DNA of 64,000 nucleotides, taken from the IMG/VR virus record IMGVR_UViG_3300028653_000011; one strand, written 5' to 3'. Of the stretch, positions 24,152-58,551 are shown piece by piece. Below the pieces are notes generated by a model. The model made no database searches. It saw only the letters and a list, made by a program, of their open reading frames with translations, and had not been told where the DNA came from. Numbering within the stretch: position 1 is the first letter of the stretch; each line of letters opens with the position of its first letter. Origin of the DNA: a virus. Its lineage: Duplodnaviria; Heunggongvirae; Uroviricota; Caudoviricetes. Made by a program: the position numbers and the translations under genes.

Positions 24152-24526
24152 ATGAGCGCCCCCATCGACATGCGTGTCCTCTGGGAGCAACAGTTGGCCT
24201 TCATGCGCCTGCTGCAGGAGAAGCGCAACTGGCCTCAATTCCCAGTTGACATCTCGACGAAGCAGGGGCAGACGCTGTTGCACGACATCCGCCATCACAT
24301 CATGGATGAATTGTTCGAGGCGGGTCAGCACCTGAAGAACGCCAAGGCCCACCGGGCGACTGAGGTGCCTGAAGTCGACCGTGAAGCCTACAAGGAAGAA
24401 CTTGTCGACGCCCTCCACCTGTACTTCGAGCTTGTCATTGCCAGCGGCATCTCGATTGAAGAGTTGGCTGACGCCTACATGAAAAAAGGTGAAGTCAATG
24501 TTGAACGTATCATGCGCGGATATTAG
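24152..24526 (+). CDS. All-alpha NTP pyrophosphatase (MazG / dimeric dUTPase / dCTPase-like)
   Basis: DELFEA...KAH...KEELVDALHLY. Confidence 0.75.
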   Translation: MSAPIDMRVLWEQQLAFMRLLQEKRNWPQFPVDISTKQGQTLLHDIRHHIMDELFEAGQHLKNAKAHRATEVPEVDREAYKEELVDALHLYFELVIASGISIEELADAYMKKGEVNVERIMRGY

Positions 24527-42119: not shown

Positions 42120-45100
42120 ATGTCACGCGTTCCGAAGAAGTTTGTTGGTCTACACGCTCATACAGGGTTTAGTCCCTTCGATGGACTTGGGTATCCGGAT
42201 GAACACTTCATCTGGTGCATGGAAAACGGTTTGGACGCGCATACTATCACGGACCATGGTAACTGCTCTGCTTATGCGCATGCCATGCTCTGGGCAGAAA
42301 AGTGGAACACTGAGCACAAAGACAAGCCCTTCAAGTATATTCCCGGCGTCGAGGCGTACTTTCATCCCGATTTGGCGCAATGGTCTCGAGATAAGGCCGC
42401 CGCTGATCAAGCCACCATCGACAAGGCCGCCGCCAAGAAGCTACGCACCAAGCTCGAGATCCTGCAGACCAAGCTCGTCGTCAATACTGACGGCGATGAC
42501 GAGTCGGAGTCAATTGAAGTCTCCAACGCCCTCACGCTTGAGGACGAGTCAGAATCGAAGAGCACCAAGCACTTCAATCCTGTCAATCGTCGGCATCACC
42601 TCGTGCTACTACCCAAGAACCCTGCTGGTCTACTGAAGATCTTCGGTCTGGTGTCGCAGAGCTATTTGACCGGATTTTACCGTTTCCCGAGGCTTGATGC
42701 CAAGATGCTGCGGGAAGCCTGTAAGGAAGGCAACATCATTGCCTCGTCTGCCTGCATTGCGGGTCAGCCTGCATACAGCGTCTTTCAAGAGGTGCAGAAG
42801 CTGAAGTTCGACGACCTAAACCAGGCGTTGCTCGACGATCCTACCACACTGGAGAAGTGCATCACTGGTGTCGGTAACACTTACGACCTGATGACGTCGG
42901 TGCTGGGCGAAGGCAATTACTACCTCGAATTGCAGTTCAATAAACTACCCGCACAGAACCTCGTCAATCGAGCCATCATCGAGTTCGCTCGCCGAGCAGG
43001 CGTCACCAAGCAACTTATCGTCACCGCCGACTCCCACTATCCACGGCCAGAGCTGTGGAAAGAGCGCGAGCTGTACAAGAAGCTCGGCTGGATGAATGCG
43101 AAGGGAATCGACGCCGATTCGCTGCCCAAGTCGAGGGACGAGCTGAAGTGTGAGCTGTACCCGAAGAACGCATCGCAGGTGTGGGATGAGTACCTGCGCT
43201 CGAAGGTGGGGACGTCGTTCTATGATGACGATCTCGTCGCTGATGCAATTGAACGCACTCACGACATCGCCCACCAAGTCATCGGCCCGGTGCCGCCCGA
43301 TCGGTCACCCAAGTTTCCGAATGAGCGGCTGATCCCGAAGGGCACCAAGTCGTTCGATCACCTCGTCAAACTGTGCAAGGAGGGCCTGACCAAGAGGGGA
43401 TTGCAGGACAAGCCTGCCTACGTTGAGCGGTTGAAGGAGGAGCTGGGCGTCATCAAGGCGATGAAGAATGCCGACTATTTCGTGTCATACCAGAAAATCA
43501 TGGAGTTGGCGCGAAAAGTGGTACTATGTGGGCCTGGGAGAGGCAGTGGTGGTGGAAGTCTCGTCGCCTACGTGCTCTACATCACTGACCTCGACCCGTT
43601 GAGGTGGGAGCTCCCATTTTCTCGCTTTCTCTCGATCTACAGGAAAGGTGCGCCGGACATCGACAGCGATCTCGCCGATCGCGACAAGGTGCTCGAGCAA
43701 CTACGCAACTTCTTCGGCTTTGAGAACGTCGTCCCGATCAGCAACTACAACACCTTCAAGCTGAAGACGCTGGTCAAGGACATCGGCAAGTTCTACAGCG
43801 TGCCCTTCGAGGAGACCAATGCAGCAACAAGGACAGTGGAAGACGAAGTTCGCAAGGCAACGATGAAGGAAAGCGACGACAAGAACCTTTTCACACTGAC
43901 TTTTGATGATGCGATGTTGTATAGCCCGTCGTTCAAGGCCTTCATCGACAAGTACCCGCAGGTCGCCGAGAGCATCAAGATCCTGTTCAAGCAAAATCGT
44001 AGTTTAGGACGTCATGCTGGAGGTGTTCTCATAACTGATGACCTGCCTAACAAGATGCCGCTGGTCGCTAGTCACGGTGAACCTCAATCGCCCTGGGTAG
44101 AAGGCGTGGGATTTAAACATTTAGAATATATTGGTGCGTTTCTTAAGTACGATCTCTTGGGTCTTGAAACTTTGCGCTATATCGAGCGCGCAATTGAGTT
44201 GATCCTGATCAAGGAAGGCAATCCCAAGCCCACCTTTCCCGACATCAAGGCGTGGTACGACGCCCACATGGCACCCGATGTCATTGACTTCAACGACCAG
44301 AAGGTCTACGAGGTCTATGCCGAAGGCAAGTGGTCGGGCATCTTTCAATGTACGGGTCAAGGCGCCCAACGCCTGTTCAAGAAGGCTAAGCCCAAGTCGA
44401 TCATCGACATCGCCGCCTTGACGTCGATCTATCGTCCCGGCCCATTGGCCGCCCACGTCGACAAGCTGTGGTTGGAGCACGAGCACACACCCTACGATTG
44501 GGGTCACCCGCTGATCAATGAGACACTGAAAGAAACGCGAGGATTGTTGGTTTTTCAGGAATCTGTGATGGCTCTCGTCAACAAGGTCGCCGGCTTTCCC
44601 ATGGCCGAGACCGACGAAGTGCGCCGTGCCATCATGAAGCGCAGCATCTCGGGAGGTGAGGCCGCCAAGAAGAAGGTGAAGGAGCTCGAGGACAGCATTG
44701 TCTCCGGCGCGGTCAAGAACGGCGTGCCTGAAGCGACAGCTCGCAAGATGTACGAGACGATATGTTTCATGAGCGGCTATGGGTTCAATCGCGCCCACGC
44801 GTGTGGGTATAGCATTGTCTCGTACTGGTGCGCGTGGATGCTGACCCACCACGAGGAACAGTGGCTGTGCGCCTACCTCGAGGCGATGTCGACGACCCCC
44901 GACAAGCGCGCCAAGGCCTTCGGCGAGGTCAAGGCCCTGGGCTACCAGATCGTGCCCATCGACATCAACCACGCGCAGTTGGGGTGGACGGTGCTGCCCG
45001 GCAAGAAGCTGATGCCGTCGATGACGTCGGTCAAGGGGGTGGGTGACTCCGCCGTCGAGGAGATCATGTCGCAGCGTCCCTATGAGTCGATCGAGCAGAT

Positions 45101-45821
45101 GCTGTGGAACGACGACGGTTCGTGGCGCCCCAGCAAGTTCAACCGTCGCGCCCTCGAGGCGCTGATCAAGGTACAGGCGCTCGACAGCGTGGGCTGTATC
45201 GGCCCCGACAAGGTCTTCAAGTCGTACCACCACATGCACGAGACGCTGATGGGTGAGTACGTTGAGACGGTGACCCGCAAGCGCAAGGGTGTCGAGGAGA
45301 CCGTCGAGATCACCCGCGAGCACGCCGCGCTGATCAAGCGGTCGAACAAGGGCGATCCCCACGAGGGCCGCAAGAACTTCTTCGAGCTGGCGCGGCGCCT
45401 GGCCGACACCCACGGTGACGAGTGGACGCGGAAGCAGCTCGCCGAGTTCAAGGCCGACTACTTCGGCACCGTCGACGTGATGACGATGTTTGACCCCAAG
45501 TACTTTGAGGCCTTCACCCGTAACGGTGTCGGGCCCATCGAAGACCTCGAGGTGGGCTCGACGGCGCTGTGTTGGTTGGTCACCACGCTGTCGGCACCAA
45601 AAAAGGGTGGGTCACCTGTCGCCGGCGTGATGAAGAAGACGAAGAATGGCAAGGCCTACCTGCAGGCCTTCGTCACCGGGCAGGTCGGCAAGCCCCTGCG
45701 GCTCAACGTGTGGGGCAAGAAGGAGCTGCTCGAACCTTATGTCCTCTATGCGGGTGAGGTGGAACGCAATGAGTTCGGCTTTTCAACTGCGGCCTTCAAG
45801 TTGAGGCTCATCGCCGGGTGA
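42120..45821 (+). CDS. dnaE: DNA polymerase III alpha subunit (family C)
   Basis: PHP domain LHAHT/DHG/GVEAY/ADSHY, GRGSGGGSL, PDIDSD, GRHAGG, KYDLLGL, SIYRPGP, GFNRAHA. Confidence 0.95.
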   Translation: MSRVPKKFVGLHAHTGFSPFDGLGYPDEHFIWCMENGLDAHTITDHGNCSAYAHAMLWAEKWNTEHKDKPFKYIPGVEAYFHPDLAQWSRDKAAADQATIDKAAAKKLRTKLEILQTKLVVNTDGDDESESIEVSNALTLEDESESKSTKHFNPVNRRHHLVLLPKNPAGLLKIFGLVSQSYLTGFYRFPRLDAKMLREACKEGNIIASSACIAGQPAYSVFQEVQKLKFDDLNQALLDDPTTLEKCITGVGNTYDLMTSVLGEGNYYLELQFNKLPAQNLVNRAIIEFARRAGVTKQLIVTADSHYPRPELWKERELYKKLGWMNAKGIDADSLPKSRDELKCELYPKNASQVWDEYLRSKVGTSFYDDDLVADAIERTHDIAHQVIGPVPPDRSPKFPNERLIPKGTKSFDHLVKLCKEGLTKRGLQDKPAYVERLKEELGVIKAMKNADYFVSYQKIMELARKVVLCGPGRGSGGGSLVAYVLYITDLDPLRWELPFSRFLSIYRKGAPDIDSDLADRDKVLEQLRNFFGFENVVPISNYNTFKLKTLVKDIGKFYSVPFEETNAATRTVEDEVRKATMKESDDKNLFTLTFDDAMLYSPSFKAFIDKYPQVAESIKILFKQNRSLGRHAGGVLITDDLPNKMPLVASHGEPQSPWVEGVGFKHLEYIGAFLKYDLLGLETLRYIERAIELILIKEGNPKPTFPDIKAWYDAHMAPDVIDFNDQKVYEVYAEGKWSGIFQCTGQGAQRLFKKAKPKSIIDIAALTSIYRPGPLAAHVDKLWLEHEHTPYDWGHPLINETLKETRGLLVFQESVMALVNKVAGFPMAETDEVRRAIMKRSISGGEAAKKKVKELEDSIVSGAVKNGVPEATARKMYETICFMSGYGFNRAHACGYSIVSYWCAWMLTHHEEQWLCAYLEAMSTTPDKRAKAFGEVKALGYQIVPIDINHAQLGWTVLPGKKLMPSMTSVKGVGDSAVEEIMSQRPYESIEQMLWNDDGSWRPSKFNRRALEALIKVQALDSVGCIGPDKVFKSYHHMHETLMGEYVETVTRKRKGVEETVEITREHAALIKRSNKGDPHEGRKNFFELARRLADTHGDEWTRKQLAEFKADYFGTVDVMTMFDPKYFEAFTRNGVGPIEDLEVGSTALCWLVTTLSAPKKGGSPVAGVMKKTKNGKAYLQAFVTGQVGKPLRLNVWGKKELLEPYVLYAGEVERNEFGFSTAAFKLRLIAG

Positions 45822-47006: not shown

Positions 47007-47954
47007 ATGTCACTGTGCGGAGGTTGTGGATCTACGTTTGACCCATGGTCATTGAGTGGAAAAGGTAGATTTGTAAGTCGATGGTGTCGATGTTGTGTTG
47101 ATGGCACTAAACGTCGTCAAGTGTTTGATTGTTTAGGTTGTCATCAACACATTGATCGTTGGGTTGAAGGTCTTTATACCTCACCAACTTTTTGTAATAA
47201 GTCATGTAGAATGAAGTATGAATATGCTAACAATATTAGGCGTAATTTTCTTAATGATAAAACAACGTGGGAATGGTGGGTCAGTAAATACGGCGAAGAA
47301 GAAGCACTTCGTAGAAAAGAGCATCATCGCGACGCAACATCACTAGCTACGTCGGGAGAAAATAATCCGATGTATGGGCGTCATGATCATGTACACGGTT
47401 TGAAACGTTTTGCCAAAGAAAAGACTGGTAAAACACTTGAAGAAGTGCATGGCGTTGATCTAGCAAGGAAAATGCGCGAGAACAAGTCATTACATGCGCG
47501 TGGGTCAAATAATCCTGCGTATGGCAAGGTGTATACGAAAGGTGGAAAGAGCATTAAGGGTTACTACAAAGACAAGTTTTTTCGTAGTCTACTCGAGTAT
47601 TCATTCATGAAACATCTTGAGAGTGAGGGGTTATCGCTTAACATTGATGTTGATTATGAGTGCTTCATTGTTCCATATGTGTTCAATGGTGCTGATCGGA
47701 CATATCGCGTTGATTTTTACGTGCCAAGTCGTCATGCAGTGTATGAAGTCAAACCTGCTTATGCTATGAAAGGTGTGACGCCCATCAATGAAGCAAAATG
47801 GAGTGCAGCACGTGTATACTTCAACCAACGCGGCATACAATTTTATGTAATGTCTGAGTTAGATTTTCCAAAGATCATGTTTGATATCGCGAGACAAGAC
47901 AGCGATGTGACATGGAAAGAAGAGACGTTCAAGTATTTCAAGAGGTCAAAATGA
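47007..47954 (+). CDS. Homing endonuclease-like (Zn fingers, NUMOD3, TnsA-like PD-(D/E)xK domain)
   Basis: GENNPMYG, GSNNPAYG, FRSLLE, YRVDFY, YEVKP; AT-rich. Confidence 0.75.
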   Translation: MSLCGGCGSTFDPWSLSGKGRFVSRWCRCCVDGTKRRQVFDCLGCHQHIDRWVEGLYTSPTFCNKSCRMKYEYANNIRRNFLNDKTTWEWWVSKYGEEEALRRKEHHRDATSLATSGENNPMYGRHDHVHGLKRFAKEKTGKTLEEVHGVDLARKMRENKSLHARGSNNPAYGKVYTKGGKSIKGYYKDKFFRSLLEYSFMKHLESEGLSLNIDVDYECFIVPYVFNGADRTYRVDFYVPSRHAVYEVKPAYAMKGVTPINEAKWSAARVYFNQRGIQFYVMSELDFPKIMFDIARQDSDVTWKEETFKYFKRSK

Positions 47955-48673
47955 TGCAACGAGTTATCATGTTTGTTGGGCCAGATCGTTGTGGCAAAAC
48001 GCAAATTGCTCAAGCTCTTGCAAAAAAGATGGGTGCGATGTACTTCAAAGCATCGTGGGAACATGCCGCATATCAACAAAGCATAGGTCTTCGTCAAGGT
48101 CGAGATTTAGATCGGGGTGCAGTCGGTGCTAATCTTGATTTAGTGCGCCATCAAGTGCGCGAAATTGCTCGACAAGATGATATTGGATTTTGGGTTGCTG
48201 AGACAAAAGATAGTGATGGTAAACTCACTCGACAGACTCTTGAACCCAAGGCATTTACGAAAAAAGATCGATTTTTGAATGAATTACGGTTTGCCGATCC
48301 GCGTACATTTGATTTTGTGAAACAATTAGGAGAACAACTTGGAACAAGCGTTGTGTTTGATCGTGCATACCCTTGTGAAAGTGCGTATTCAACCGTAATG
48401 TGCCGTGAAACCGATCAATCAGCGCTTGAACAAATTGATCGTTGGTGGTCATCTCTTAATACTTTGATTATTGTGTGTCGTCGATCTAACTACAGTGGCA
48501 TTACAGACGATCTTGATTCTTCAATCAATGGTGACGTACTTCAAAAACTTGATGACGCATACATGGAATTTACCACGTGGACGCGGTGCTTCTTCAAAGA
48601 ACTCAACGTCGACGATGAAGACCTCGACCGCGAAGTCAATGAGATCCTGCAGTTCATCGGATGGGAGAAGTGA
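47951..48673 (+). CDS. dNMP kinase-like (second thymidylate-kinase fold)
   Basis: FVGPDRCGKTQ, VFDRAYPCESAY. Confidence 0.7.
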   Translation: MMQRVIMFVGPDRCGKTQIAQALAKKMGAMYFKASWEHAAYQQSIGLRQGRDLDRGAVGANLDLVRHQVREIARQDDIGFWVAETKDSDGKLTRQTLEPKAFTKKDRFLNELRFADPRTFDFVKQLGEQLGTSVVFDRAYPCESAYSTVMCRETDQSALEQIDRWWSSLNTLIIVCRRSNYSGITDDLDSSINGDVLQKLDDAYMEFTTWTRCFFKELNVDDEDLDREVNEILQFIGWEK

Positions 48674-48681
48674 GGTGATCC

Positions 48682-48867
48682 ATGTGGCTCTATGACAGCG
48701 TGGCGAACGTGTGGCACATGTGGGCAATTGCCAGCCCAACGATCGGCACCAAGGCATGGTGCGGCTTCGCTCTAACGGCAGATTGCACCCCCACGGGCGG
48801 CACCACCGGCATCCGCTGCGTATCGTGCAGTTACCTCTTCACCAAGTCGAGGCCCCAACGTGCCTAA
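48682..48867 (+). CDS. Small Cys-rich hypothetical protein
   Basis: WH...CG...CVSC. Confidence 0.4.
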   Translation: MWLYDSVANVWHMWAIASPTIGTKAWCGFALTADCTPTGGTTGIRCVSCSYLFTKSRPQRA

Positions 48868-49354
48868 TACCTGTCACTTCTGCGCCAAGCCAACGAAGCC
48901 GGGTCACAACTACTGTGATTGGGACTGTCACGTCGCTGATGCCAAGCGCATTGGGGGCAAGGTCAAGTGTCCCAACGGTCTGCGCATCGCCTGCATCAAG
49001 CACAACGGCGACATGCTGGAACACGAGCACGGTGACCACCCGGACTACAAGTTTCCCGTCACCGTCGAGTACCACGGCACCGACTTCGAGCGCGCCGAGG
49101 TGCAGCTGGCGATCTATGGCAAGCTACTCACGCCTGCTGAATTGCTGCGCTCCCGTGATCAGGTGCACGCGCTGATCTACACCGACGGAACCATCGCGGT
49201 GACAATGTACGAATGTTGTTACGCGACGTGGTTCATCAATCAATCAAGCGTTTCCCGTGTGGTGGGTAACCTGTGGGAGCGCGGTGAGTGGGCGTTATCT
49301 GCGGCTTCACGCACGAAGATCAGTGACTTGTACAATGGCTCGCGTGGGCACTAG
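48860..49354 (+). CDS. Hypothetical protein with N-terminal Zn finger
   Basis: CHFC...YCDWDC. Confidence 0.5.
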   Translation: MPNTCHFCAKPTKPGHNYCDWDCHVADAKRIGGKVKCPNGLRIACIKHNGDMLEHEHGDHPDYKFPVTVEYHGTDFERAEVQLAIYGKLLTPAELLRSRDQVHALIYTDGTIAVTMYECCYATWFINQSSVSRVVGNLWERGEWALSAASRTKISDLYNGSRGH

Positions 49355-49363
49355 AATCAGCAC

Positions 49364-49915
49364 ATGAAACTCTACTGGCTTGATCTAGAAACCACGGGTC
49401 TCGATCCCTCAAGCACCGAGATTCTTGAAGTGGCGGTCGCCGAGGCTGACTTGCTCAACCCCTTCGACGTCAAGCACATCTATCACGCGGTGTTGCCGCT
49501 CCTCACGCACGTCGAGCAGCTTAACCCGTTCATTGTCAACATGCACACCCAGAACGGGTTGTTGGCCGAGTGTCAGGGTCCGAATACCAAGTCGCTAGCG
49601 CAGGTTGACAAGGAACTGGCTGCGTTGATTGCGTGGGTCGACGACAAGGACGAGCGTGCCACACTGGCCGGGTCGAGCATTCACTTCGACCACTCGTACA
49701 TCAAGGTGTACATGCCGCTGACCAACAAGAATCTGTCATACCGTCACTATGACGTGTCAGCACTGAAGTTGTTCTGCCAATCGATGGGCATGCCCAAGTT
49801 CAAGAAGGCCGAAGCGCACCGTGCCAAGGACGACATCATCGAGAGCGTTGACCACGCCAAGGCCTGCAAGGAGTGGCTGACGGCGAACTTGAGCTATGCG
49901 CCGGTGATGAAGTGA
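49364..49915 (+). CDS. orn: Oligoribonuclease-like DEDDh exonuclease
   Basis: WLDLETTGLD, EILEVA, LAGSSIHFD, YRHYDVSALK, HRAKDDI. Confidence 0.85.
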   Translation: MKLYWLDLETTGLDPSSTEILEVAVAEADLLNPFDVKHIYHAVLPLLTHVEQLNPFIVNMHTQNGLLAECQGPNTKSLAQVDKELAALIAWVDDKDERATLAGSSIHFDHSYIKVYMPLTNKNLSYRHYDVSALKLFCQSMGMPKFKKAEAHRAKDDIIESVDHAKACKEWLTANLSYAPVMK

Positions 49916-50139
49916 AGCTCGGCCTCATCTTCGTTGGGTTGTTGGCGCTGTGCGGGTGTTCGCAGACCGCACAGGTCCTGTCGAAGGATGGAACTAAGGT
50001 CGCGGCGGTGTGTGAGGGTGGTAACTGGGTGCTGTGCATGACCACAACGTGCCCCAACGGTTACGACGTTGTCAGCATTGACATGCGAAACAGTGAACGC
50101 GCGCCACAGGACGCCAACGCGATCGTCAGGTGCAAGTGA
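49912..50139 (+). CDS. Small lipoprotein
   Basis: MKLGLIFVGLLALCG|C lipobox. Confidence 0.6.
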   Translation: MKLGLIFVGLLALCGCSQTAQVLSKDGTKVAAVCEGGNWVLCMTTTCPNGYDVVSIDMRNSERAPQDANAIVRCK

Positions 50140-50146
50140 GTGTTGA

Positions 50147-51238
50147 TCAGTCAGCCAGTCTTGACAGGTGCTCGTACACCAGCTCATCGATGATCTGCCT
50201 GGCCTCGTCAATGGGATCCCACGTCTGCGTGTGATCAAAGCCCAGCTTCTTGACCTTCAACTTGCCGTCGGGGTCACGGGTGACCTTGGCATCCTGGCCT
50301 GGGTTGAACCGCGTGTTGGTGGTGGGCCCGGGACCGTAGGCCTTGCCCTTGTAGCGGGTGTGGACGGGACGGTTGTTCTTGCGGCCGTAGATGCGGTAGG
50401 TGTCCTTCGACGCGCCGGGGGTACGGACGCTGTTGGCCGGGTCAGCCTTGGGTTTCTTGGCCCAATCGGGCTGTTCTGCCTTGGGACGGTCATATGTACC
50501 AGCGCTGGGTGGCTTGGCCCAATAAGGTTGTTCTGCCTTGGGCGGGGGTGGGCGACCGGGTCGAGGTTTTTCGACATAGCCCTTCTTGCGCTTGTCATTG
50601 ATCTGTGCCTGCGCCACGTGGACCGCCATGCCGTTTGCACTGTAATCCTCGGTAGTGGTTTGACCCGCTGAACCGATGCGGCCCCATCGCTTGGTGAGTT
50701 TATTACCACTAACGCTGATCTCCCAGAACTTGCTCGATGAACCACCCACGAATTCGAAGTAGCGAGGCTCTCTGAACCCGCTCTTTCGTTGCTCCTCCTG
50801 CGCTTTCTTCGCCGAGGCCTGGTCATTGTATGTTCCACCGGCCGATGCTGGTGGGGGTGGCTGCTTTTTCCACCATGCATCGCGCTCGTCGCGTTTGCTG
50901 GAATTCCATCCGTCTTGTGGCGGGGGAGGTGCTGCCTTGGGTGGTGCCGCATGGGCCTTCGCCGCCTTGGGATCTTCATAACCCTTGAATTCGGCGCCGA
51001 ACCTGAACTTGTTGGTGGGGTTGAGCAGCCGATCCTTGGCATTGTTGATGTCGACCATCTTGCCGTGGGCGTTGGGATCGCCTGCGTTGCGGTCGGGGTG
51101 GTGCTGGAGGGCCAACTTCTTCCATGCCGCCTTGATCTGATCCTCCGACGCACCCTTGGGCACCCCGAGGATATCATAGGCGTTGAGCAGGGCCTCTTGG
51201 ATCAGGCGCCTGACCTCGTGGATGTTGAGCCTCATCAC
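50147..51238 (-). CDS. Leader-motif + DnaJ J-domain + WGR-domain protein
   Basis: MRLNIHEVRRLIQE; YDILGV...WKKLALQHHPDRN; SKFWEI...RWGRIGSAGQ; TATTTA on the minus strand at 51241-51246. Confidence 0.85.
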   Translation of the reverse strand: MMRLNIHEVRRLIQEALLNAYDILGVPKGASEDQIKAAWKKLALQHHPDRNAGDPNAHGKMVDINNAKDRLLNPTNKFRFGAEFKGYEDPKAAKAHAAPPKAAPPPPQDGWNSSKRDERDAWWKKQPPPPASAGGTYNDQASAKKAQEEQRKSGFREPRYFEFVGGSSSKFWEISVSGNKLTKRWGRIGSAGQTTTEDYSANGMAVHVAQAQINDKRKKGYVEKPRPGRPPPPKAEQPYWAKPPSAGTYDRPKAEQPDWAKKPKADPANSVRTPGASKDTYRIYGRKNNRPVHTRYKGKAYGPGPTTNTRFNPGQDAKVTRDPDGKLKVKKLGFDHTQTWDPIDEARQIIDELVYEHLSRLAD

Positions 51239-51255
51239 CGTAAATAGGGGTGTAG

Positions 51256-52599
51256 ATGGGCGTGTGCGGGAGTAAAATGAAGAGCATGAAGCGACTACTG
51301 GTGACGACGCAGTTGAGCAACTTTGTCGACGGTAAAGCAGATCTCGCTTGCGATAGCGGGTGGCAAATGTGCATCAACCGCATCCGCGAGATGCTACGAT
51401 TGAACCCCAACCTCTACGTCGACATCATGGGACCCAATGAGGATCAGTTGGTGCAGCACCCCGCCGACGTCAATCCTGATCTGGTTGCGATGTACGGCGA
51501 GATCGACGTGCCACGATTGCGGTACATTGAGCACCCAATCGTCACCAGCGCGCTGATCACCCGCTATGACTTCAAGTGGTCGGAGATCGCCGACTCAATG
51601 GGCCTCGAGGAACACAAGGCTGATGTCACCCAGCGCTATGACGCCGTCTATGTGAATGATCCCATGCAGCTCCGCGCCTTCAAGGCCATGTTCCACGTCG
51701 TCGGGGGCTACCAACCCAAGTTCTTCGTGCACTCACACTTCGTCGACGTCCCCGAGGTCCCCAAGTTCCCAGCCGAAGCGTCGCTGTGGCTGGGCCAGTG
51801 CGAGGCCACGCTGAAGGCTGACTACAACTTCTGGCAGTGCGAGTCGGCGATGAACCAGTTCTTCGACAGCATGGGCAAGTGGTTCGTGCAGGACGTGGTC
51901 GACGACGTGCGGGCTAAATCGCAAGCGTCTGATGACGGGTATTCGATTGCGGAGATCACTTCGCCCATATGCCAAGCTAATCTACGGTTTACGGACGCTG
52001 AGTGGCGTGCCAAGACTAATGGTAAGGTGGTACTGTTCTTTCCCAATCGCATTAGCCAGAGTTCAAGTGATTACACGCGTGGTTGGTGGTTCACACATGA
52101 GTTCATGCCCAAACTTCGACAACGTCGCCAAGACTATGTCGTGGTGTGCGGTAATCCTAACATGAAGCTGTCGAATGATGAACTCGTTCAATTATGTGGG
52201 CCTCATGGTTATGTTAAGCTGCACGATCACACGTTCAATCGTGATGAGTATAAGTACGTTGCGTCACACAGTGACATTGTCGTAGCGCTGTATGATGCCA
52301 AGAGTGACGCGTACGGTGGGACGGCCTCTCGAGAATGCATTGAATTGGGGTGTGTACCATGCTGGCCTTCTTGCAATGAATATTTGAGCCTTGCTCGAGA
52401 AGCAAGAGTTGAACACCTATTGGCCAAGTCTGACTTGTCTGATTTAGTAGACGTCGCAGACAATCTCATTGGTCTTGCGGGTTCATCATCTTTGCCATTG
52501 AAACAGTACAATGAACGATTGCGTGAAGTTGTACGTAGGCGCTGTTCGTTTGAACAGACTGTTCCCACAATGATGAAAAAGATGGGTCTACTATGCTAA
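51256..52599 (+). CDS. GT-B fold glycosyltransferase
   Basis: VHSHF, FPNRIS, RDEYKYVASHSDIVVAL, YGGTASRECIELGCVP (GT4/GT1-like C-terminal motif). Confidence 0.65.
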   Translation: MGVCGSKMKSMKRLLVTTQLSNFVDGKADLACDSGWQMCINRIREMLRLNPNLYVDIMGPNEDQLVQHPADVNPDLVAMYGEIDVPRLRYIEHPIVTSALITRYDFKWSEIADSMGLEEHKADVTQRYDAVYVNDPMQLRAFKAMFHVVGGYQPKFFVHSHFVDVPEVPKFPAEASLWLGQCEATLKADYNFWQCESAMNQFFDSMGKWFVQDVVDDVRAKSQASDDGYSIAEITSPICQANLRFTDAEWRAKTNGKVVLFFPNRISQSSSDYTRGWWFTHEFMPKLRQRRQDYVVVCGNPNMKLSNDELVQLCGPHGYVKLHDHTFNRDEYKYVASHSDIVVALYDAKSDAYGGTASRECIELGCVPCWPSCNEYLSLAREARVEHLLAKSDLSDLVDVADNLIGLAGSSSLPLKQYNERLREVVRRRCSFEQTVPTMMKKMGLLC

Positions 52600-53618
52600 T
52601 TGAAGTTCTCGAAACATGGATCAAGACGCCTCGATACAAGAATCGTGGTAAACGACGATTGTTAGCGATTGTTGCGTGTGATGCGTGCGGCAAACGTGAA
52701 CAGCTACCATACATCAACGGAATGTGGGAGACTCGAAAACGCGTCTGTTCACCTGAGTGTGATACAAAACTACGATCTCGTGGTGGTGCGCTTTATGCAA
52801 GTATCACGGCGACGAACGTAGAGCGATATGGCGCAAAGTACGCATCAGCGACTGATTTAGGAAAGCACAAACAGGAAGAGACAAATCTTAGAAAGTATGG
52901 ATATAAGGCATCCTCACAATCACCTGAAGTTGAAGCTAAACGACTTAACACGTGTCTTTCTATGTATGGCGGACCTGCAGCAACAAGTGACGCGAACGTC
53001 AGAGCGAAAGTCAAGTTGACGTGTGATACCAAGTTTGGTGGTGGTGTGTTGCTCGATGATGATATTCGAGAGCAATTCAACGCAACTATGGTAGAACGAC
53101 ATGGTGCACCGTGGGCAGCACAATCAGCAATCATTCTCGCTAAACAACATCAGACCAACATTGAACGTTATGGAGTTGCGTTTCCATTCCACACAGATGA
53201 AGCGAAGTCAAGAGCACACTCACCCCAAGCGCTACTCAAACGCCATGAGACCATGAAGCGTAATGGCACATACAGGACTTCAAAGCCTGAAGACCGTCTC
53301 TATCAAGTTCTGTGTGAGATGTTTGATATAGACGACGTCGACCGCCAGACGCTCGTATACAAGTGGCCAATTGACTTCTACGCCAAGAGCATTGACACCT
53401 ACGTACAGTACGACAGTTATTGGCATGGCGTCGGACGCGCAATCATTGAGGTCGCTGAACACAAGGTGCCTCGAGACGTCTCGATTCACAAGAAGATGCT
53501 GACTGACATCGCTCAGGATGCGTACTTCGCCGAACGTGGCATGCGGCTCATTCGTGTGCAGAGCCTGACGCCTGAACAGATTACCCCCGCGGCCATGCGT
53601 CGCATGGGCCTGCTGTGA
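52593..53618 (+). CDS. Homing-endonuclease-like protein (paralog of 8405-9337)
   Basis: CDAC, RYG/KYG repeats, IDFYAKSIDTYVQYDSYWHG. Confidence 0.7.
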   Translation: MLIEVLETWIKTPRYKNRGKRRLLAIVACDACGKREQLPYINGMWETRKRVCSPECDTKLRSRGGALYASITATNVERYGAKYASATDLGKHKQEETNLRKYGYKASSQSPEVEAKRLNTCLSMYGGPAATSDANVRAKVKLTCDTKFGGGVLLDDDIREQFNATMVERHGAPWAAQSAIILAKQHQTNIERYGVAFPFHTDEAKSRAHSPQALLKRHETMKRNGTYRTSKPEDRLYQVLCEMFDIDDVDRQTLVYKWPIDFYAKSIDTYVQYDSYWHGVGRAIIEVAEHKVPRDVSIHKKMLTDIAQDAYFAERGMRLIRVQSLTPEQITPAAMRRMGLL

Positions 53619-53619
53619 C

Positions 53620-53946
53620 ATGAAACCCGGTGACCTCATCGAGTGGGCGTACAAGTCGGACGGCAAAGTCGTTCACCCCCATGAAGAATTGTGGTCATCG
53701 ATCGAGAAACGCTACGTGCCCATCGGCGGCCTACACCTGTTCGTCAGCAATGTTGACGGCACCCTGACATGGCTGCCTCTGGGTGAGAATTGTAAGGGGT
53801 TGCTCCACGCGCGCGAGGCTGATACGATGGCCAGGTCGGGCCGGTCGTTCGCGACGAGCGGTTGCTCCACGCGCGCGAGGCTGATACCGACCTGTACGGC
53901 GAGTGGTGCGACGACGAAGTCGGTTGCTCCACGCGCGCGAGGCTGA
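53620..53946 (+). CDS. 'MKPGDLIEW'-family protein reading through a CRISPR mini-array
   Basis: Family motifs; the stop codon lies inside the third repeat. Confidence 0.65.
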   Translation: MKPGDLIEWAYKSDGKVVHPHEELWSSIEKRYVPIGGLHLFVSNVDGTLTWLPLGENCKGLLHAREADTMARSGRSFATSGCSTRARLIPTCTASGATTKSVAPRARG

Positions 53947-53949
53947 TAC
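53798..53949. CRISPR. CRISPR mini-array, 3 identical 28-nt repeats and 2 spacers of 34 nt (type I-E-like)
   Basis: GGTTGCTCCACGCGCGCGAGGCTGATAC at 53798, 53860 and 53922. Spacers are GATGGCCAGGTCGGGCCGGTCGTTCGCGACGAGC and CGACCTGTACGGCGAGTGGTGCGACGACGAAGTC. Confidence 0.85.
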
Positions 53950-53997
53950 GGTAGGCGTGCCGAGACGTCGCCGATTGTACCCACGCCTGTACCACAC

Positions 53998-54026
53998 CTG
54001 AACACTGATCTCTCATGTGGTACAGT
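53998..54026 (+). promoter_or_regulatory. Promoter CTGAAC-N17-TACAGT (leaderless)
   Basis: ATG 54034 lies 7 nt after the -10 element; shares CCTGAACACTG with the 5775 promoter. Confidence 0.7.
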
Positions 54027-54033
54027 CTAACCC

Positions 54034-54990
54034 ATGACCGAACGGGTATTGATCACGGGCGCGGCGGGTTTCATCGGCTCAAACCTGGTCACCCGGTGCC
54101 TGGCCGAAGGGTGGGTCGTCCGCGGCGTCGACGACATGAGCAGTGGCCACCGAGAACTGCTGCACCCCGCCTTTAATACTGGTAGCCTGTTGATCGGCGA
54201 CTTTGCCGCTGATTTCGTCCTCAACTCGATCAGGGCACAGGCCTTCGACGTCGTCATTCACCTGGCGGCGACGCCCCGCGTCAGCTATTCCGTCGAACAC
54301 CCGCTGGAAACGCACGACAACAACGTCACCAAGACGCTGAAGTTGCTCGACGCCTGCACGGGCAACGTCAAACGCTTCGTCTTCGCCAGCTCCAGTGCCG
54401 TCTATGGTGGCGCGCTGGAGCTGCCCACTCCCGAGACGGCACCCAAGGAACCCAAGTCGCCCTATGCACTCCAGAAGTCGATCATTGAGGACTACCTGAA
54501 GTTGTACAGCAACCTCTACGGCCTCGACAGCGCTTGCCTGCGGTTCTTCAACGTCTTCGGCCCGGGCCAGTTGGGTAGCAATCCCTATGCGACGGCGATC
54601 GCGGCGTGGCTGACAGCGATCAAGCGCGGCGAGCCCATGCGCAGCGACGGTGACGGCTTTCAAAGCCGCGACATGTGCTACGTCGACAACGTCACTGATG
54701 CCTGTGCCAAGGCGGTGCAGAGCAAGGTACCCCTGATGGGAGCGTGTTACAACGTGGCCTGCGGCGACAATGTCTCCAACAACGACATCTTGGCGGTGTT
54801 GCGGGCCCATTACCCAGAGGCGACCGTCGTCAATGCGCCGGCTCGACGGGGCGACGTGATGCACACCATGGCCGACGTGTCGAAGGCCCAGCAACAGTTG
54901 GGCTACGTGCCGCTGGTCAAGTTCTGGCCGGGCCTCATCAAGACGATGATGTGGTACGAGCGTGAGTGGGAACAGATCAGGAGCCTGTGA
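54034..54990 (+). CDS. NAD-dependent NDP-sugar epimerase (extended SDR, GalE/WbpP-like)
   Basis: TGAAGFIGSNL, HLAA, FASSSAVYG, YALQK, LRFFNVFGPGQ. Confidence 0.9.
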   Translation: MTERVLITGAAGFIGSNLVTRCLAEGWVVRGVDDMSSGHRELLHPAFNTGSLLIGDFAADFVLNSIRAQAFDVVIHLAATPRVSYSVEHPLETHDNNVTKTLKLLDACTGNVKRFVFASSSAVYGGALELPTPETAPKEPKSPYALQKSIIEDYLKLYSNLYGLDSACLRFFNVFGPGQLGSNPYATAIAAWLTAIKRGEPMRSDGDGFQSRDMCYVDNVTDACAKAVQSKVPLMGACYNVACGDNVSNNDILAVLRAHYPEATVVNAPARRGDVMHTMADVSKAQQQLGYVPLVKFWPGLIKTMMWYEREWEQIRSL

Positions 54991-55187
54991 TGAAGATCAC
55001 CTTGACGGCCGATGAAGTGCGCGAGGCCTGCGCGATGTACGTCCGCAGCAAGTACGAAAATTTGCGGGGTGCAACTCTGGCGGTGCAACTGCACCGTCGT
55101 CAACTGACGCCGCAGGAGGAATTCGACGCCTCGCACGGCTACGTCAACGACATGACGGACCGCGTTGAAGCCGTGGTGGACGCATGA
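54990..55187 (+). CDS. Hypothetical protein
   Basis: Coupled ATG. Confidence 0.45.
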   Translation: MKITLTADEVREACAMYVRSKYENLRGATLAVQLHRRQLTPQEEFDASHGYVNDMTDRVEAVVDA

Positions 55188-55417
55188 GCAATGTCAGGTC
55201 AGTCGCAGATTACCATGCAAATCACGCAATTGAAGCACTCAAAGTGCTCATTGAGTCAACGCCTGAAGGCGAGTTCGTAGATATCCCACAAACACGTCAA
55301 CAGCTCGAACAGATGCGTCAAAAATTGATCGGCATCGAACACATGAAGGATAGCGTCGCATACATCGATTATCAACTTGAACAGGGTGATTTGGGAAGGG
55401 TACGATTCGCAACATGA
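55184..55417 (+). CDS. Hypothetical protein
   Basis: Coupled ATG. Confidence 0.45.
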   Translation: MSNVRSVADYHANHAIEALKVLIESTPEGEFVDIPQTRQQLEQMRQKLIGIEHMKDSVAYIDYQLEQGDLGRVRFAT

Positions 55418-56169
55418 TTACTAACACCGTCTCTGACATGCGACTGGAGCTGGCACGTCACCTCGCTGACCAGCGCTTCACCAGCGTCAACCGTGAGGCG
55501 TCAATGACGTCGCTGGTCGGCGCCAAGACGATCGAACTGTGTGGTGTCAACTTCATCGCCGACCAAGAAGTGCTGTTCGGCAAGCTGAACCACGATTACC
55601 TCAAGCGTGAGGAACAGTGGTACCAGTCAATGTCGTGCAGCGTTGATGACTTTCCGGGTGGCGCCCCCGCGGTGTGGGAGGCAATCGCCTCGAGGGATGG
55701 ACTGGTCAACTCAAACTACGGCTACCTCATCCGTCACTCCGACAATGGTTATCAGTTCGACCACGTCGTTAACGAGTTACGAAGGAACCCGGAGTCCCGC
55801 CGAGCGGTGATGATCTACACCCGGCCGTCGATGTGGGTCGACTACAATAAGGGTGGGCGCTCTGACTTCGTCTGCACCAACACGGTGCAGTACCTGATCC
55901 GCGACGGTTCGGTGAGTGCTGTGGTGAATATGCGCTCACAAGATTCACACATCGGATATAAGAACGATCGCGAATGGCAGCGATTGACGCTCAACGCCGT
56001 CGCTGATGCGGTGGGAGTACCAGCGGGCGTGCTGATGTGGCAGGTGGGGTCGCTCCATGTCTACCAACGTGACTTCTACCTCGTCGATCACTTCATCAAG
56101 ACGCGTGAAGTCAACATCACCAAGGCGCAGTACCGTGAACTGTATCCCACGTCGCCGTATAATGAGTGA
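55414..56169 (+). CDS. dCMP hydroxymethylase-like (thymidylate synthase fold)
   Basis: NPESRRA, DFVCT, AVVNMRSQDSHIGYKNDREWQ, GSLHVY; Asp at the ThyA Asn177-equivalent position. Confidence 0.85.
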   Translation: MITNTVSDMRLELARHLADQRFTSVNREASMTSLVGAKTIELCGVNFIADQEVLFGKLNHDYLKREEQWYQSMSCSVDDFPGGAPAVWEAIASRDGLVNSNYGYLIRHSDNGYQFDHVVNELRRNPESRRAVMIYTRPSMWVDYNKGGRSDFVCTNTVQYLIRDGSVSAVVNMRSQDSHIGYKNDREWQRLTLNAVADAVGVPAGVLMWQVGSLHVYQRDFYLVDHFIKTREVNITKAQYRELYPTSPYNE

Positions 56170-57966: not shown

Positions 57967-58551
57967 ATGGCCGACACCAACGCCTCTCTGATCGTCTTCT
58001 GTGGGCCCATGATGTCGGGCAAGACGTCGAAGCTGTTGATGGCCCTCGAGCGCCTCAAGTACCAGCACAAGCGCGTTGCCGTCTTCAAGCCCTCGCTCGA
58101 CGTCAGGTACAGCGCCAGCGAAATCGTCAGCCACTTGGGTTGGCGGCACCCGGCGACGACGGTGCAAGGCGGCGCCGACATCCTCGAGGCACTGGCTGAG
58201 GCCGACGTGGCACCTGATGCGATTGCCGTCGACGAGGCCTTCATGATCCCGGGTGTCGCAGGGGTGTTGACGTGGTTGTACCGCACCGGCGTCGACGTCG
58301 TCGTCTCCACGCTCGACATTTCGGCGACGGGCAAGCCCTTTCCCGAGGTCGAGAAGTTGTTGCCGTGGGCCACGCACATCGAGAAGTGCTCGGCCGTCTG
58401 CACCCAGTGTGGCCGTGACGCCTTCTACACCCACAAGAAGCAGGTGTCGACCGACGATGAGATTGAAGTCGGTGGTGCCGAGATGTACGAGCCGCGTTGT
58501 AGCCGCCATCACGTCGCGATCGATCTGCGGCCCAAGCTCAATGAGCCATGA
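57967..58551 (+). CDS. tdk: Thymidine kinase
   Basis: CGPMMSGKT, VDEA, CTQCG, YEPRC. Confidence 0.9.
   Translation: MADTNASLIVFCGPMMSGKTSKLLMALERLKYQHKRVAVFKPSLDVRYSASEIVSHLGWRHPATTVQGGADILEALAEADVAPDAIAVDEAFMIPGVAGVLTWLYRTGVDVVVSTLDISATGKPFPEVEKLLPWATHIEKCSAVCTQCGRDAFYTHKKQVSTDDEIEVGGAEMYEPRCSRHHVAIDLRPKLNEP

Follow-up and report, generated by a model that had tools for sequence, protein, structure and literature searches.

A probable T4-style gene set for glycosylated 5-hydroxymethylcytosine in the DNA of an uncultivated jumbo phage

We analysed a window of 64,000 nucleotides from a tailed-phage record in IMG/VR (IMGVR_UViG_3300028653_000011). Cytosine in the DNA of this phage is most likely converted to 5-hydroxymethylcytosine (5hmC), to which a sugar would then be added, by a gene set in the style of phage T4. 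The best explanation of these genes (Table 1), and in our judgement a probable one, is that an uncultivated jumbo phage of ~360 kb, with a DnaE-type DNA polymerase, replaces cytosine before replication and glycosylates its DNA afterwards. A preliminary description of the window had proposed base replacement and glycosylation, and this interpretation is supported, by inference from the genes. Every gene that it had named is present, where it had been placed or close by, and each belongs to the claimed class of enzymes. We refer to genes by their first coordinate.

Table 1. Genes of the window that are discussed in the text
Feature	Coordinates	Strand	Evidence
Atypical ThyX-like enzyme (flavin-dependent thymidylate synthase), apparently permuted	20032..20943	+	PF02511, E 1e-13
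Canonical thymidylate kinase (TMPK) adjoining ThyX	21041..21655	+	PF02223, E 2.1e-12; G000:48813-49211 = window 21068-21466
All-alpha NTP pyrophosphohydrolase, dUTPase_2/gp56 family; candidate dCTPase	24152..24526	+	PF08761
DnaE-type (family C) DNA polymerase, head of syntenic block	42120..45821	+	PF07733, E 2.7e-49; PHP, finger and HHH_6 domains
Homing-endonuclease-like insertion (NUMOD3 and TnsA-like nuclease)	47007..47954	+	PF08722, E 6.5e-9; PF07460
Candidate 5hm-dCMP kinase: nucleotide kinase of TMPK/dNK fold (240 aa, with an insert of ~55 residues)	47951..48673	+	Model, hhalign
Exonuclease of the DEDD type (RNase T/DnaQ-like), located between kinase and glycosyltransferase	49364..49915	+	PF00929, E 3.7e-12
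Candidate DNA 5hmC glycosyltransferase: GT4-like GT-B enzyme of 447 aa, from an uncharacterised family found in phages only	51256..52599	+	Predicted structure
Homing-endonuclease-like insertion (DUF7487) between glycosyltransferase and epimerase	52593..53618	+	PF24308, E 5.5e-19
NAD-dependent NDP-hexose 4-epimerase (GalE superfamily), 318 aa	54034..54990	+	PF01370, E 5.6e-50
Putative dCMP hydroxymethylase (5hmdCMP synthase), T4 gp42 type, 251 aa	55414..56169	+	PDB 1b49/1b5d, PF00303
Thymidine kinase	57967..58551	+	PF00265, E 2.3e-35
dCMP deaminase	60261..60821	+	PF00383, E 2.5e-15

The putative dCMP hydroxymethylase

The protein encoded by 55414 matches PF00303 (E = 1.6e-14), and its top match in the PDB is the dCMP hydroxymethylase of T4 (E = 2.3e-71, with residues 31-241 aligned). 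It is ~50% identical to gp42 of Tequatrovirus (985 phage records); in our alignment A3, identity is 50% to T4-type gp42 and 24% to gp48 of phage RB69. It is gp42-like rather than MilA-like, as it matches MilA with E = 1.6e-10 only. The motif SDFVCTNTVQY keeps the catalytic cysteine and has Asp at the position of L143 in ThyA of E. coli, and the motif MRSQD...KND has Asp at the positions of D169 and N177, so that all three diagnostic positions are Asp. The peptide that the preliminary description had quoted from this gene (AVVNMRSQDSHIGYKNDREWQ) is found there, and the aligned T4-type protein reads VNMRSNDVVFGFRNDYAWQ, in agreement with the sequence that it had given for T4 gp42.

At the D169 position, 55414 reads MRSQD, whereas RB69 gp48, a 5-hydroxy-dCMP synthase, reads MRSQN. 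Asn at this position (D169N) is the signature of the 5-hydroxy-dCMP synthases, which depend on flavin, in RB69, DLP3 and RL38J1, and the control that yielded 5hmdC in the published assay was gp42 of T4 (PMC13326640). We took the residue signatures for product type from that study, in which those at D169 and L143 rest on a limited set of tested enzymes (PMC13326640). Judged by its diagnostic residues, 55414 is distinct from dUMP enzymes as well as from the recently described 5-hydroxy-dCMP synthases. Because it has Asp rather than Asn at D169, Asp at N177, and 50% identity to gp42, a hydroxymethyl product is favoured over a hydroxy or methyl product. These observations also uphold the earlier argument that the enzyme is specific for dCMP over dUMP. 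One PF00303 gene and ThyX are present in each of five related records.

The conserved gene cluster

We compared the locus to 30 related IMG/VR loci (28 of them untruncated; flanks of ±10 kb). Across these loci the gene order is DnaE, kinase, glycosyltransferase (GT), epimerase, thymidylate-synthase-fold (TS) gene, thymidine kinase, and deaminase. The kinase, the GT, the epimerase, and an Asp-type TS gene adjoin DnaE in the related jumbo phages; DnaE is upstream in 26 of the 30 loci, the deaminase is retained in the block in 24, and the DEDD exonuclease is present in 10. The TS slot holds an Asp-type gene in all 28 untruncated loci, and this gene resembles either gp42 or MilA (CMP hydroxymethylase, E = 3e-47), or falls between the two. 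Because the same gene order is found in 28/28 untruncated loci, the clustering is not due to chance. Furthermore, of 13 further loci with more distant members of the GT family (25-36% identity), 12 show a triad of GT, kinase of the same family, and Asp-type TS gene. In a contig from a PolA-type phage (L031), the TS gene, the kinase, the GT, and a MazG-like gene are found together. That the GT is linked to the kinase and the TS gene is backed by synteny conserved in both sets of loci.

In the window, the cluster is spread over 8 kb because of inserted genes: the two that resemble homing endonucleases, an ORF with a repeat array (a small ORF at 53620), and a DnaJ-WGR gene on the minus strand. 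The insertion at 47007 is present in just one of the 30 related loci. The one at 52593 matches phrog_3339 (homing endonuclease, E = 1.7e-16), and no such insertion is found at that place in locus L002, one of the relatives in which the GT, the epimerase, and the TS gene follow each other with nothing in between.

By sequence, 51256 has no match in Pfam, PHROG, NCBIfam, or the PDB. The preliminary description had called it a GT-B glycosyltransferase, and its AlphaFold model (pLDDT 91.1, pTM 0.90) does have the GT-B fold. Foldseek matched the model to GlgM, MshA, and BshA with probability 1.0, and the model (VIA) aligns to BshA 6d9t with Z = 29.0 (rmsd 3.3, 356 residues aligned) and to PimA and MshA with Z = 27-28. 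The family has >355 metagenomic homologues, in 152 clusters at 50% identity, and no BLAST-detectable member in cultured or GenBank phages. We found no sequence relation to T4 AGT, T4 BGT, RB69 gp46/47, or RL38J1 gp215, so the proposed DNA acceptor rests on synteny and fold analogy. BshA/MshA-like GT-B enzymes of other phages do glycosylate 5hmC or 5hoC (5-hydroxycytosine) in DNA (10.1101/2023.12.21.572611; PMC13326640 Table 1). We propose 51256 as a candidate DNA 5hmC glycosyltransferase.

The NDP-sugar epimerase was correctly recognized as such from its sequence. Its nearest PDB entries are 6wjb (E = 1.5e-56), WbgU (1.8e-48), and WbpP (3.5e-45), and it contains the motifs GAAGFIGS, SSSAVYG, and YALQK; the Asp-Glu pair of dehydratases was not found in it. 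It is of the GalE type, with UDP-HexNAc epimerases closest. Because the epimerase is missing from the flanks of 3 of the 30 loci, and is absent or a weak match in the distant loci, the sugar-supply step may be optional.

The kinase at 47951 had been described as a second dNMP kinase, like gp1 of T4; the first is the canonical TMPK at 21041. It is a P-loop kinase whose model (pLDDT 83.6) has the thymidylate-kinase/deoxynucleoside-kinase (TMPK/dNK) fold, with Foldseek probabilities of 1.0 to thymidylate and deoxyadenosine kinases. We rejected the likeness to gp1: its family (119 homologues, mostly of ~180 aa, with invariant GPDxCGKT and FDRxxPCExxYS) is homologous to the cluster kinase of RB69, RB69p045 (hhalign probability 91%, E = 8.9e-7), and neither G000 nor either of two complete relatives encodes a homologue of gp1. 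Some other enzyme must therefore make the diphosphate. We propose 47951 as a candidate 5hm-dCMP kinase; the TMPK-like cluster kinase is without an established role even in RB69, DLP3, and RL38J1, where the kinase shown to act on modified dCMP is of the gp1 type (PMC13326640).

A proposed pathway and its alternatives

In the proposed pathway, the gp56-like pyrophosphohydrolase 24152 would convert dCTP to dCMP. It exceeds the cut-off of PF08761 (29.2 versus 22.9 bits), its family profile matches RB69 gp56 (hhalign probability 92%, E = 6.6e-7, 123 columns), and a gene of this type is directly upstream of DnaE in three loci (L022, L025, and L030). It had been described as MazG/dCTPase-like; the homology to gp56 stands, and specificity for dCTP is a candidate assignment, as the enzyme could be only a dUTPase. 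(A separate trimeric dUTPase is absent from this phage's 216-kb record and present in three relatives.) The gp42-type 55414 would then take the methylene group from CH2-THF and place it on C5 of dCMP, with hydration yielding 5hm-dCMP, as its family membership and full set of diagnostic residues suggest. Kinase 47951, in place of gp1, would form 5hm-dCDP, which host NDP kinase would convert to the triphosphate, and DnaE would build 5hm-dCTP into DNA. Finally, the GT-B-fold enzyme 51256 would move a sugar onto the 5-hydroxymethyl group, with DNA as the presumed acceptor and with a presumed donor and stereochemistry. The donor would be a UDP-sugar from the 4-epimerase, probably UDP-Gal or UDP-GalNAc formed from the host's UDP-Glc or UDP-GlcNAc.

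A separate branch to dTTP would comprise the dCMP deaminase (identified as such before, and again by Pfam), the ThyX-like enzyme, the canonical TMPK, and thymidine kinase. ThyX does match its family, but not in the ordinary form: residues 20-167 match profile positions 59-186, while residues 198-247 align to residues 24-73 of ThyX from T. maritima, so it looks like an atypical, circularly permuted form. We found no DHFR, which fits two enzymes, ThyX and the hydroxymethylase, that both leave folate unoxidised.

The TS-fold enzyme might instead make another C5-modified dCMP, which could be the 5-hydroxy-dCMP of RB69, DLP3, and RL38J1 or else 5-methyl-dCMP; any sugar would then be ether-linked to 5hoC, or the DNA would carry plain 5mC. 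RB69 gp48 itself carried the annotation of a dCMP hydroxymethylase for years and only later proved to be a 5hodCMP synthase (PMC13326640), the architecture of TS homologue, TMPK-like kinase, and GT-B enzyme serves 5hoC in all three of those phages, and Ser occupies the D169 position in some distant triad loci (L043-L045). Nevertheless, Asp at D169 together with an acidic residue at L143, the closer kinship to T4-type gp42 than to RB69 gp48, and the 5hmdC product of T4 gp42 (PMC13326640) make this quite improbable. A very improbable reading is that 47951 phosphorylates a sugar or the 5-hydroxymethyl group in DNA, as 5-hmdU DNA kinases do in thymidine hypermodification, so that the final base is not a simple glycoside. 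Its family is uncharacterised, and the gp1-type kinases of RB69 and DLP3 leave the cluster kinase roleless, but the fold and DR motif are typical of nucleoside-monophosphate kinases, and 47951 pairs with the hydroxymethylase while the canonical TMPK pairs with ThyX.

It is also unlikely that 5hmC is made but stays bare in DNA while the GT and the epimerase serve to glycosylate another target, for example proteins of the virion, the envelope of the host, or a small molecule. The nearest structural relatives of 51256 (BshA, MshA, PimA, and WaaG) do use small molecules and lipids, none of the proven DNA glycosyltransferases is related to it in sequence, and ~65% of phage GT contigs lack a nearby base-modification gene (Pyle et al., 10.1101/2023.12.21.572611). 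Against this, the GT family directly adjoins, and often overlaps, the Asp-type TS gene and the kinase, across two levels of divergence and two types of polymerase; the neighbourhood is one of replication and nucleotide metabolism, not of structural or envelope genes; and the proven DNA glycosyltransferases (of DLP3, RB69, and metaviromes) share BshA/MshA-like best matches.

Comparison with known systems

The T4 pathway consists of a dCTPase (gp56), a dCMP hydroxymethylase (gp42), a dNMP kinase (gp1), and alpha- and beta-glucosyltransferases, along with the dCMP deaminase Cd. The preliminary description held that the window mirrors this set. This is so for the hydroxymethylase, which is orthologous in type, for the gp56-family enzyme, the deaminase, and a GT-B-fold transferase, and for the pre-replicative logic, in which the nucleotide is modified first and the DNA is glycosylated after. 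It is not so for the kinase, which is TMPK-fold, or for the GT, whose sequence shows no relation to AGT (PF11440) or BGT, and the presence of a 4-epimerase points to something else than plain UDP-glucose as the donor. Also, dTMP comes from ThyX rather than from Td and Frd, and the replicase of this ~360-kb phage is of family C, while T4's is of family B.

RB69, Acinetobacter phage DLP3, and Rhizobium phage RL38J1, whose DNA contains glycosylated 5-hydroxycytosine, likewise combine a TS homologue and a TMPK-like "nucleotide kinase" (homologous to ours in RB69) with BshA/MshA-like GT-B transferases and NDP-sugar enzymes near the DNA polymerase (PMC13326640). In contrast to 55414, their TS homologues carry D169N, use flavin, and make 5-hydroxy-dCMP; the sugar in these phages is arabinose or Gal/Glc, and it comes with dedicated UDP-arabinose or mutase genes, which are absent from the window (PMC13326640); and their GTs have no detectable sequence similarity to 51256. 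The metavirome clusters of Pyle et al. (bioRxiv 10.1101/2023.12.21.572611; Cell Rep 2024), also on IMG/VR contigs, place BshA/MshA-like GT-B genes in the neighbourhood of genes for ThyS, an epimerase, dCMP deaminase, and DNA polymerase, and these GT-B enzymes put hexose, HexNAc, or heptose on 5hmC, as shown or predicted; the GTs tested, however, came from methyltransferase/TET (post-replicative) clusters. Finally, a MilA-like enzyme, including MilA's C-terminal extension, occupies the gp42-like slot in relatives of this phage. MilA itself (CMP 5-hydroxymethylase; PDB 5jnh, 5b6d) acts on CMP in antibiotic biosynthesis; the window's own enzyme is of the gp42 type.

Palindromes that contain C or G are not avoided (median observed/expected ratios of 1.0 and 0.97). 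Anti-restriction by glycosylated hydroxymethylcytosine is known; here it would be built around a family of glycosyltransferases without a characterised member. The modification likely shields the DNA of this phage against host restriction and other defences that target DNA.

Setting and layout of the cluster

The gene set that the preliminary description, made from sequence alone, had assigned to cytosine hypermodification is present: the thymidylate synthase (TS)-fold gene, the kinase, the glycosyltransferase (GT), the epimerase, the gp56-type enzyme and the deaminase all belong to the classes it had named. The window comes from a jumbo phage that is uncultivated and encodes a DnaE-type polymerase. 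It spans bases 27746-91745 of a 215,857-bp IMG/VR record, which CheckV rates 63% complete and whose G+C content is 57.5%; contigs as long as 361-369 kb carry the same proteins.

Features of the cluster and its surroundings, by position in the window
Feature	Position	Strand	Length (aa)	Match or remark
ThyX-like protein	20032-20943		303	
Canonical TMPK	21041-21655			
gp56-type pyrophosphatase (dCTPase candidate)	24152-24526			dUTPase_2, PF08761, 29.2 bits (cut-off 22.9)
DnaE polymerase	42120-45821			one unbroken ORF
NUMOD3/TnsA-like gene	47007			insertion
Cluster kinase (candidate 5hm-dCMP kinase)	47951-48673		240	
DnaJ-WGR fusion gene	50147-51238	minus		insertion; DnaJ E = 2.6e-17, WGR E = 9.2e-16
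Glycosyltransferase (predicted GT-B)	51256-52599		447	
DUF7487 homing-endonuclease-like gene	52593			insertion
Small ORF with repeat array	53620-53946			insertion
Three 28-nt repeats	53798-53949			
Epimerase (extended SDR)	54034-54990			PF01370, E = 5.6e-50
TS-fold gene (predicted dCMP hydroxymethylase)	55414-56169		251	Thymidylat_synt, PF00303, E = 1.6e-14
HslV-like peptidase gene	56057-56752			phrog_1040, E = 8e-22
HslV-like peptidase gene	56674-57336			phrog_1040, E = 3e-23
Thymidine kinase	57967			confirmed
CCA-adding/poly(A)-polymerase-family gene	59125-60264			PF01743, E = 1.6e-32
dCMP deaminase	60261			domain match
Fe/Mn superoxide dismutase	61139-61894			PF02777, E = 4.3e-17

Insertions lengthen the cluster in the window; in the related IMG/VR locus L002, the GT, epimerase and TS genes abut. 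The DnaJ-WGR gene runs against an otherwise plus-strand block and was found in 9 of 30 related loci. Three identical repeats (GGTTGCTCCACGCGCGCGAGGCTGATAC) lie within and just past the small ORF, with an exact 62-nt period and unrelated spacers; this array, which has the homing-endonuclease-like gene on one side and the epimerase on the other, resembles a CRISPR mini-array. A search of genome contigs for a host gave no exact match to the repeat. Two overlapping HslV-like genes directly follow the TS-fold gene, and the pair is kept in 19 of the 30 loci. The conserved block downstream also holds the CCA-adding/poly(A)-polymerase-family gene and the superoxide dismutase, the latter in 25 of 30 loci. 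Matches to DnaE, which is intact in the window, are split into at least 2 pieces with gaps of 0.4-3 kb in many related loci (L002, L003, L007-L009, L012, L013, L017-L019, L021, L023, L024, L026 and L028-L030), a pattern that points to inteins, introns or inserted homing endonucleases.

The predicted hydroxymethylase and its nucleotide pool

By far the best PDB relatives of the TS-fold protein (55414) are structures of T4 dCMP hydroxymethylase (1b49, 1b5d and 6a9b; E = 2.3e-71 across residues 31-241), followed by the CMP hydroxymethylase MilA (E = 1.6e-10) and ordinary thymidylate synthases (E = 1e-7 or worse). It is about 50% identical to gp42 of Tequatrovirus (tblastn). The catalytic cysteine (Cys148 in T4, Cys146 in E. 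coli ThyA) is kept, as SDFVCTNTVQY versus SDFMCTNTVQY in T4. At the position of ThyA Asn177, which corresponds to Asp179 of T4 and bears on cytosine specificity, the protein has aspartate (GYKND, versus GFRND in T4). The position of ThyA Leu143 is acidic, with an aspartate three residues before the cysteine, as in T4 (SDFMC).

A related activity had to be considered, as a 2026 paper shows that in the phages RB69, DLP3 and RL38J1 the "gp42-like" enzymes synthesise 5-hydroxy-dCMP with the help of flavin (PMC13326640). That study gives signatures in ThyA numbering, drawn from the limited set of enzymes assayed: N177D goes with cytosine specificity, acidity at L143 with non-methyl products, and D169N with the 5-hydroxy enzymes (PMC13326640). 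We aligned 55414 with RB69 gp48 and the T4-type gp42 of phage HY01 (alignment A3). The signature strings are SDFVC...MRSQD...KND in the window, SDFMC...MRSND...RND in the T4 type and LEYPC...MRSQN...QLD in RB69 gp48. The D169N change of the RB69 gp48/DLP3 gp80 type is absent, since 55414 reads MRSQD where gp48 reads MRSQN in the same column. Furthermore, 55414 is 50% identical to HY01 gp42 and 24% identical to RB69 gp48. Together, the strings and the identities place 55414 with the 5hm-dCMP synthases in all respects and outside the 5-hydroxy group. By every sequence criterion it is a T4 gp42-type dCMP hydroxymethylase, and it is predicted to make 5hm-dCMP. The original reading of this gene as gp42-like, from the aspartate at N177, thus stands, with the catalytic cysteine and the aspartates at D169 and L143 added to it.

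Sequence searches with the cluster kinase (47951) yielded only P-loop matches to AAA ATPases, which we rejected as uninformative; the fold search decided its identity. The model (pLDDT 83.6) matches thymidylate and deoxyadenosine/deoxynucleoside kinases (Foldseek probability 1.0), and the family, mostly of about 180 amino acids, has an invariant P-loop (GPDxCGKT) and DR motif (FDRxxPCExxYS). Judged by its model, 47951 is a TMPK/dNK-fold protein with both motifs. The window's copy has an insert of about 55 residues (residues ~45-100; a low-confidence helix and beta-hairpin) that is absent from nearly all of 119 homologues and is common only to it and the family member P0123. The family profile (A2) matches RB69p045 (hhalign probability 91.4%, E = 8.9e-7, 141 columns) and, weakly, RL38J1_214 (38%, E = 3.3e-4); RB69p045 is a TMPK-like "nucleotide kinase" within the RB69 hypermodification cluster (PMC13326640). 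The comparison with T4 gp1 did not survive: this is a nucleotide kinase alongside a canonical TMPK, but a query with RB69 gp1 (E up to 0.01) found no gp1-type kinase in the window's own record or in two complete related jumbo-phage records (G002 and G003). The canonical TMPK adjoins ThyX. The synthases and kinases thus form two pairs, one for dTTP (ThyX and TMPK) and one made up of the hydroxymethylase and 47951; on this basis we propose 47951 as a candidate 5hm-dCMP kinase.

The profile (A4) of the pyrophosphatase 24152 matches the dCTPase gp56 of RB69 (hhalign probability 92%, E = 6.6e-7). The protein belongs to the gp56-type family of all-alpha NTP pyrophosphohydrolases and is a dCTPase candidate. 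The MazG/dCTPase-like label holds as to homology. Three related records (G002, G003 and G004) also encode a trimeric dUTPase, which would free the gp56-type enzyme for dCTP; we found none in the 216-kb record of the window, so here the enzyme may act on dCTP or on dUTP. The protein is highly conserved in the clade (65-90% identity), and its homologue sits immediately upstream of DnaE in L022, L025 and L030.

No dihydrofolate reductase was found in five related records, nor in the 216-kb record of the window, which fits because neither ThyX nor a hydroxymethylase yields dihydrofolate. The ThyX-like protein looks circularly permuted: residues 20-167 match positions 59-186 of Pfam Thy1, and residues 198-247 align to residues 24-73 of Thermotoga maritima ThyX. 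Its motif is THRAFSRNSASSR instead of RHR...S...S.R. The long divergent form is also found in the relatives with gp42-like TS genes, G002 and G003; relatives with a MilA-like TS gene carry a standard ThyX of 222-247 amino acids.

The predicted glycosyltransferase and the sugar

The GT (51256) has no sequence match in Pfam, PHROGs, NCBIfam, PDB or GenBank phages. None of its more than 355 metagenomic homologues (49-72% identity) is annotated, and contigs of 100-370 kb carry many of them. A model computed with AlphaFold from 37 homologues (pLDDT 91.1, pTM 0.90) matches GlgM, MshA and BshA with Foldseek probability 1.0. In the VIA comparison, 356 residues align with BshA (Z = 29.0, rmsd 3.3), and PimA and MshA score Z = 27-28. 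The model indicates a GT-B fold closest to the retaining GT4 enzymes, as the preliminary description had called it, though the family is invisible to every sequence library. The invariant residues D351, G354, T356, R359, E360, G365 and P368 resemble the nucleotide-sugar (EX7E-like) motif of GT4. None of the Pfam GT models matches the window's protein; a distant member in locus L031 weakly matches PF13692 (E = 4.3e-4). The family is small: a set of 1.84 billion representatives contains 152 of its clusters at 50% identity, and queries with 51256 and the distant members P0400 and P0377 detected no member by BLAST in the cultured phages of GenBank.

We compared the GT with known DNA glycosyltransferases. 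The Pfam scan gave no family at E up to 0.01, and so no sequence match to T4 AGT (PF11440) or BGT. T4 AGT and BGT are absent among the best 50 VIA matches listed, which does not in itself exclude similarity, and an AGT cluster appears only at rank 28 among the language-model neighbours of the GT, a hint rather than a test. There was no hhalign signal between the family and RB69 gp46, RB69 gp47 or RL38J1 gp215. The DNA glycosyltransferases of DLP3 and RB69 (PMC13326640) and of a metavirome (10.1101/2023.12.21.572611) also have BshA, MshA or sucrose-phosphate synthase as structural neighbours. These published analogues and the kinase-GT-TS synteny are what point to 5hmC in duplex DNA as the putative acceptor.

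The epimerase (54034) has a GxxGxxG NAD site and a Ser/Tyr/Lys triad (GAAGFIGS, SSSAVYG, YALQK) and is without the dehydratase Asp-Glu pair. These are the features of a GalE-type NDP-hexose 4-epimerase, so that its putative role as an NDP-sugar epimerase is upheld. Its score against the GalE model TIGR01179 (154 bits) is under the equivalog cut-off of 262. The closest solved relatives are 6wjb/6wj9 (E = 1.5e-56), WbgU (1.8e-48) and WbpP (3.5e-45), which are UDP-HexNAc 4-epimerases. 54034 has threonine where these relatives have serine (RRGDVMHTMAD versus RSGDVRHSQAD in WbgU). Its substrate pair may be UDP-Glc/Gal or UDP-GlcNAc/GalNAc; in GalE enzymes, a small residue at this gatekeeper position fits N-acetylated substrates. 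In the 216-kb record we found no other GT of the GT1 or GT2 type (PF00534, PF00535) and no sugar nucleotidyltransferase (PF00483). The simplest model is that a host UDP-sugar is epimerised; which sugar this would be is speculation.

A conserved core and its probable meaning for the phage DNA

Scanning IMG/VR with the GT alignment gave 30 loci with the order DnaE, kinase, (exonuclease), GT, epimerase, TS-fold gene, two HslV-like genes, thymidine kinase, dCMP deaminase and superoxide dismutase. The TS-fold slot is filled in all 28 untruncated loci, by three kinds of gene: a gp42-like form (49-64% identity to the window's protein), a MilA-like form of about 330 amino acids (E = 3e-47 to CMP hydroxymethylase), and an intermediate form of about 280 amino acids. 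L010, which seemed to lack the gene, has a 329-amino-acid MilA-like one that tblastn missed. If the relatives' TS genes of about 30% identity were ordinary ThyA, the GT would be uncoupled from cytosine modification. This was ruled out, as all have aspartate at N177 and are closest to MilA or gp42; indeed, all three kinds have aspartate at N177, D169 and L143. In five whole related records, of which two are 99% complete or more, we found a single PF00303 gene per record, in each case along with a ThyX.

When distant members of the GT family (25-36% identity) served as the query, 13 further loci emerged. In 12 of these, the GT's neighbours are a kinase of the same family and a TS-fold gene with aspartate at N177; in the thirteenth, the contig ends just past the GT. 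DnaE, dCMP deaminase and pyrophosphatase genes are often close by, and in L031, a contig of 22 kb whose polymerase is of family A, TS, kinase and GT occur together with a MazG-like gene. Thus, the triad of kinase, GT and Asp-type TS gene is the conserved core, and no other observation argues more strongly for action of the GT on modified cytosine.

In L043-L045, which are among the distant triad loci, the TS-fold gene (7242-8270 of L043) has serine at the D169 position (MRSQSVVMVM), unlike both the hydroxymethylases (aspartate) and the 5-hydroxy-dCMP synthases (asparagine). Such enzymes may form a third product class.

Systems of this kind are already known from T4, from the clusters of RB69, DLP3 and RL38J1 (PMC13326640), and from the survey of Pyle and colleagues, who located GT-B enzymes in IMG/VR close to genes for ThyS, epimerase, dCMP deaminase and polymerase (10.1101/2023.12.21.572611). 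An overview of jumbo phages names hydroxymethyl-CTP as a pre-modified nucleotide route (PMC7824862). Our literature search found no paper on this phage clade or GT family. We consider it very probable that this phage makes 5hmC, and probable, though less so, that the 5hmC in its DNA is glycosylated. C/G-containing palindromes occur at a median of 1.0 (4-mers) and 0.97 (6-mers) times expectation; this lack of restriction-site avoidance is compatible with a protected genome, as weak evidence.

A fuller reading is tentative, and we hold it to be rather unlikely as a whole. The triad would mark an unrecognised DNA glycosyltransferase family, widespread but restricted to uncultivated phages. In the DnaE-replicating jumbo-phage clade, its members would attach a sugar that is new to native virion 5hmC; alpha-linked GalNAc or Gal, derived from an epimerised UDP-sugar, would be examples. 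The TMPK-like cluster kinase, which has no assigned role even in RB69, DLP3 and RL38J1, would be dedicated to modified dCMP, and gp42-like, MilA-like and intermediate lineages would have refilled the hydroxymethylase position in place.

The GT family, which has no characterised member and always has a kinase on one side and a cytosine-type TS enzyme on the other, offers a testable case; new DNA glycosyltransferases would be useful reagents for labelling 5hmC. The TMPK-like kinase, given no function in published work, gains a candidate one, and the slot is a natural case of three hydroxymethylase lineages substituting for one another. Hypermodified cytosines complicate phage sequencing, and if the modification blocks transposase- or PCR-based library preparation, the clade may be under-counted in metagenomes. 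They also decide phage survival against restriction enzymes, some CRISPR effectors and type IV systems, and the cluster would carry the T4 paradigm over to a large clade of DnaE-replicating phages of about 360 kb that are uncultivated.
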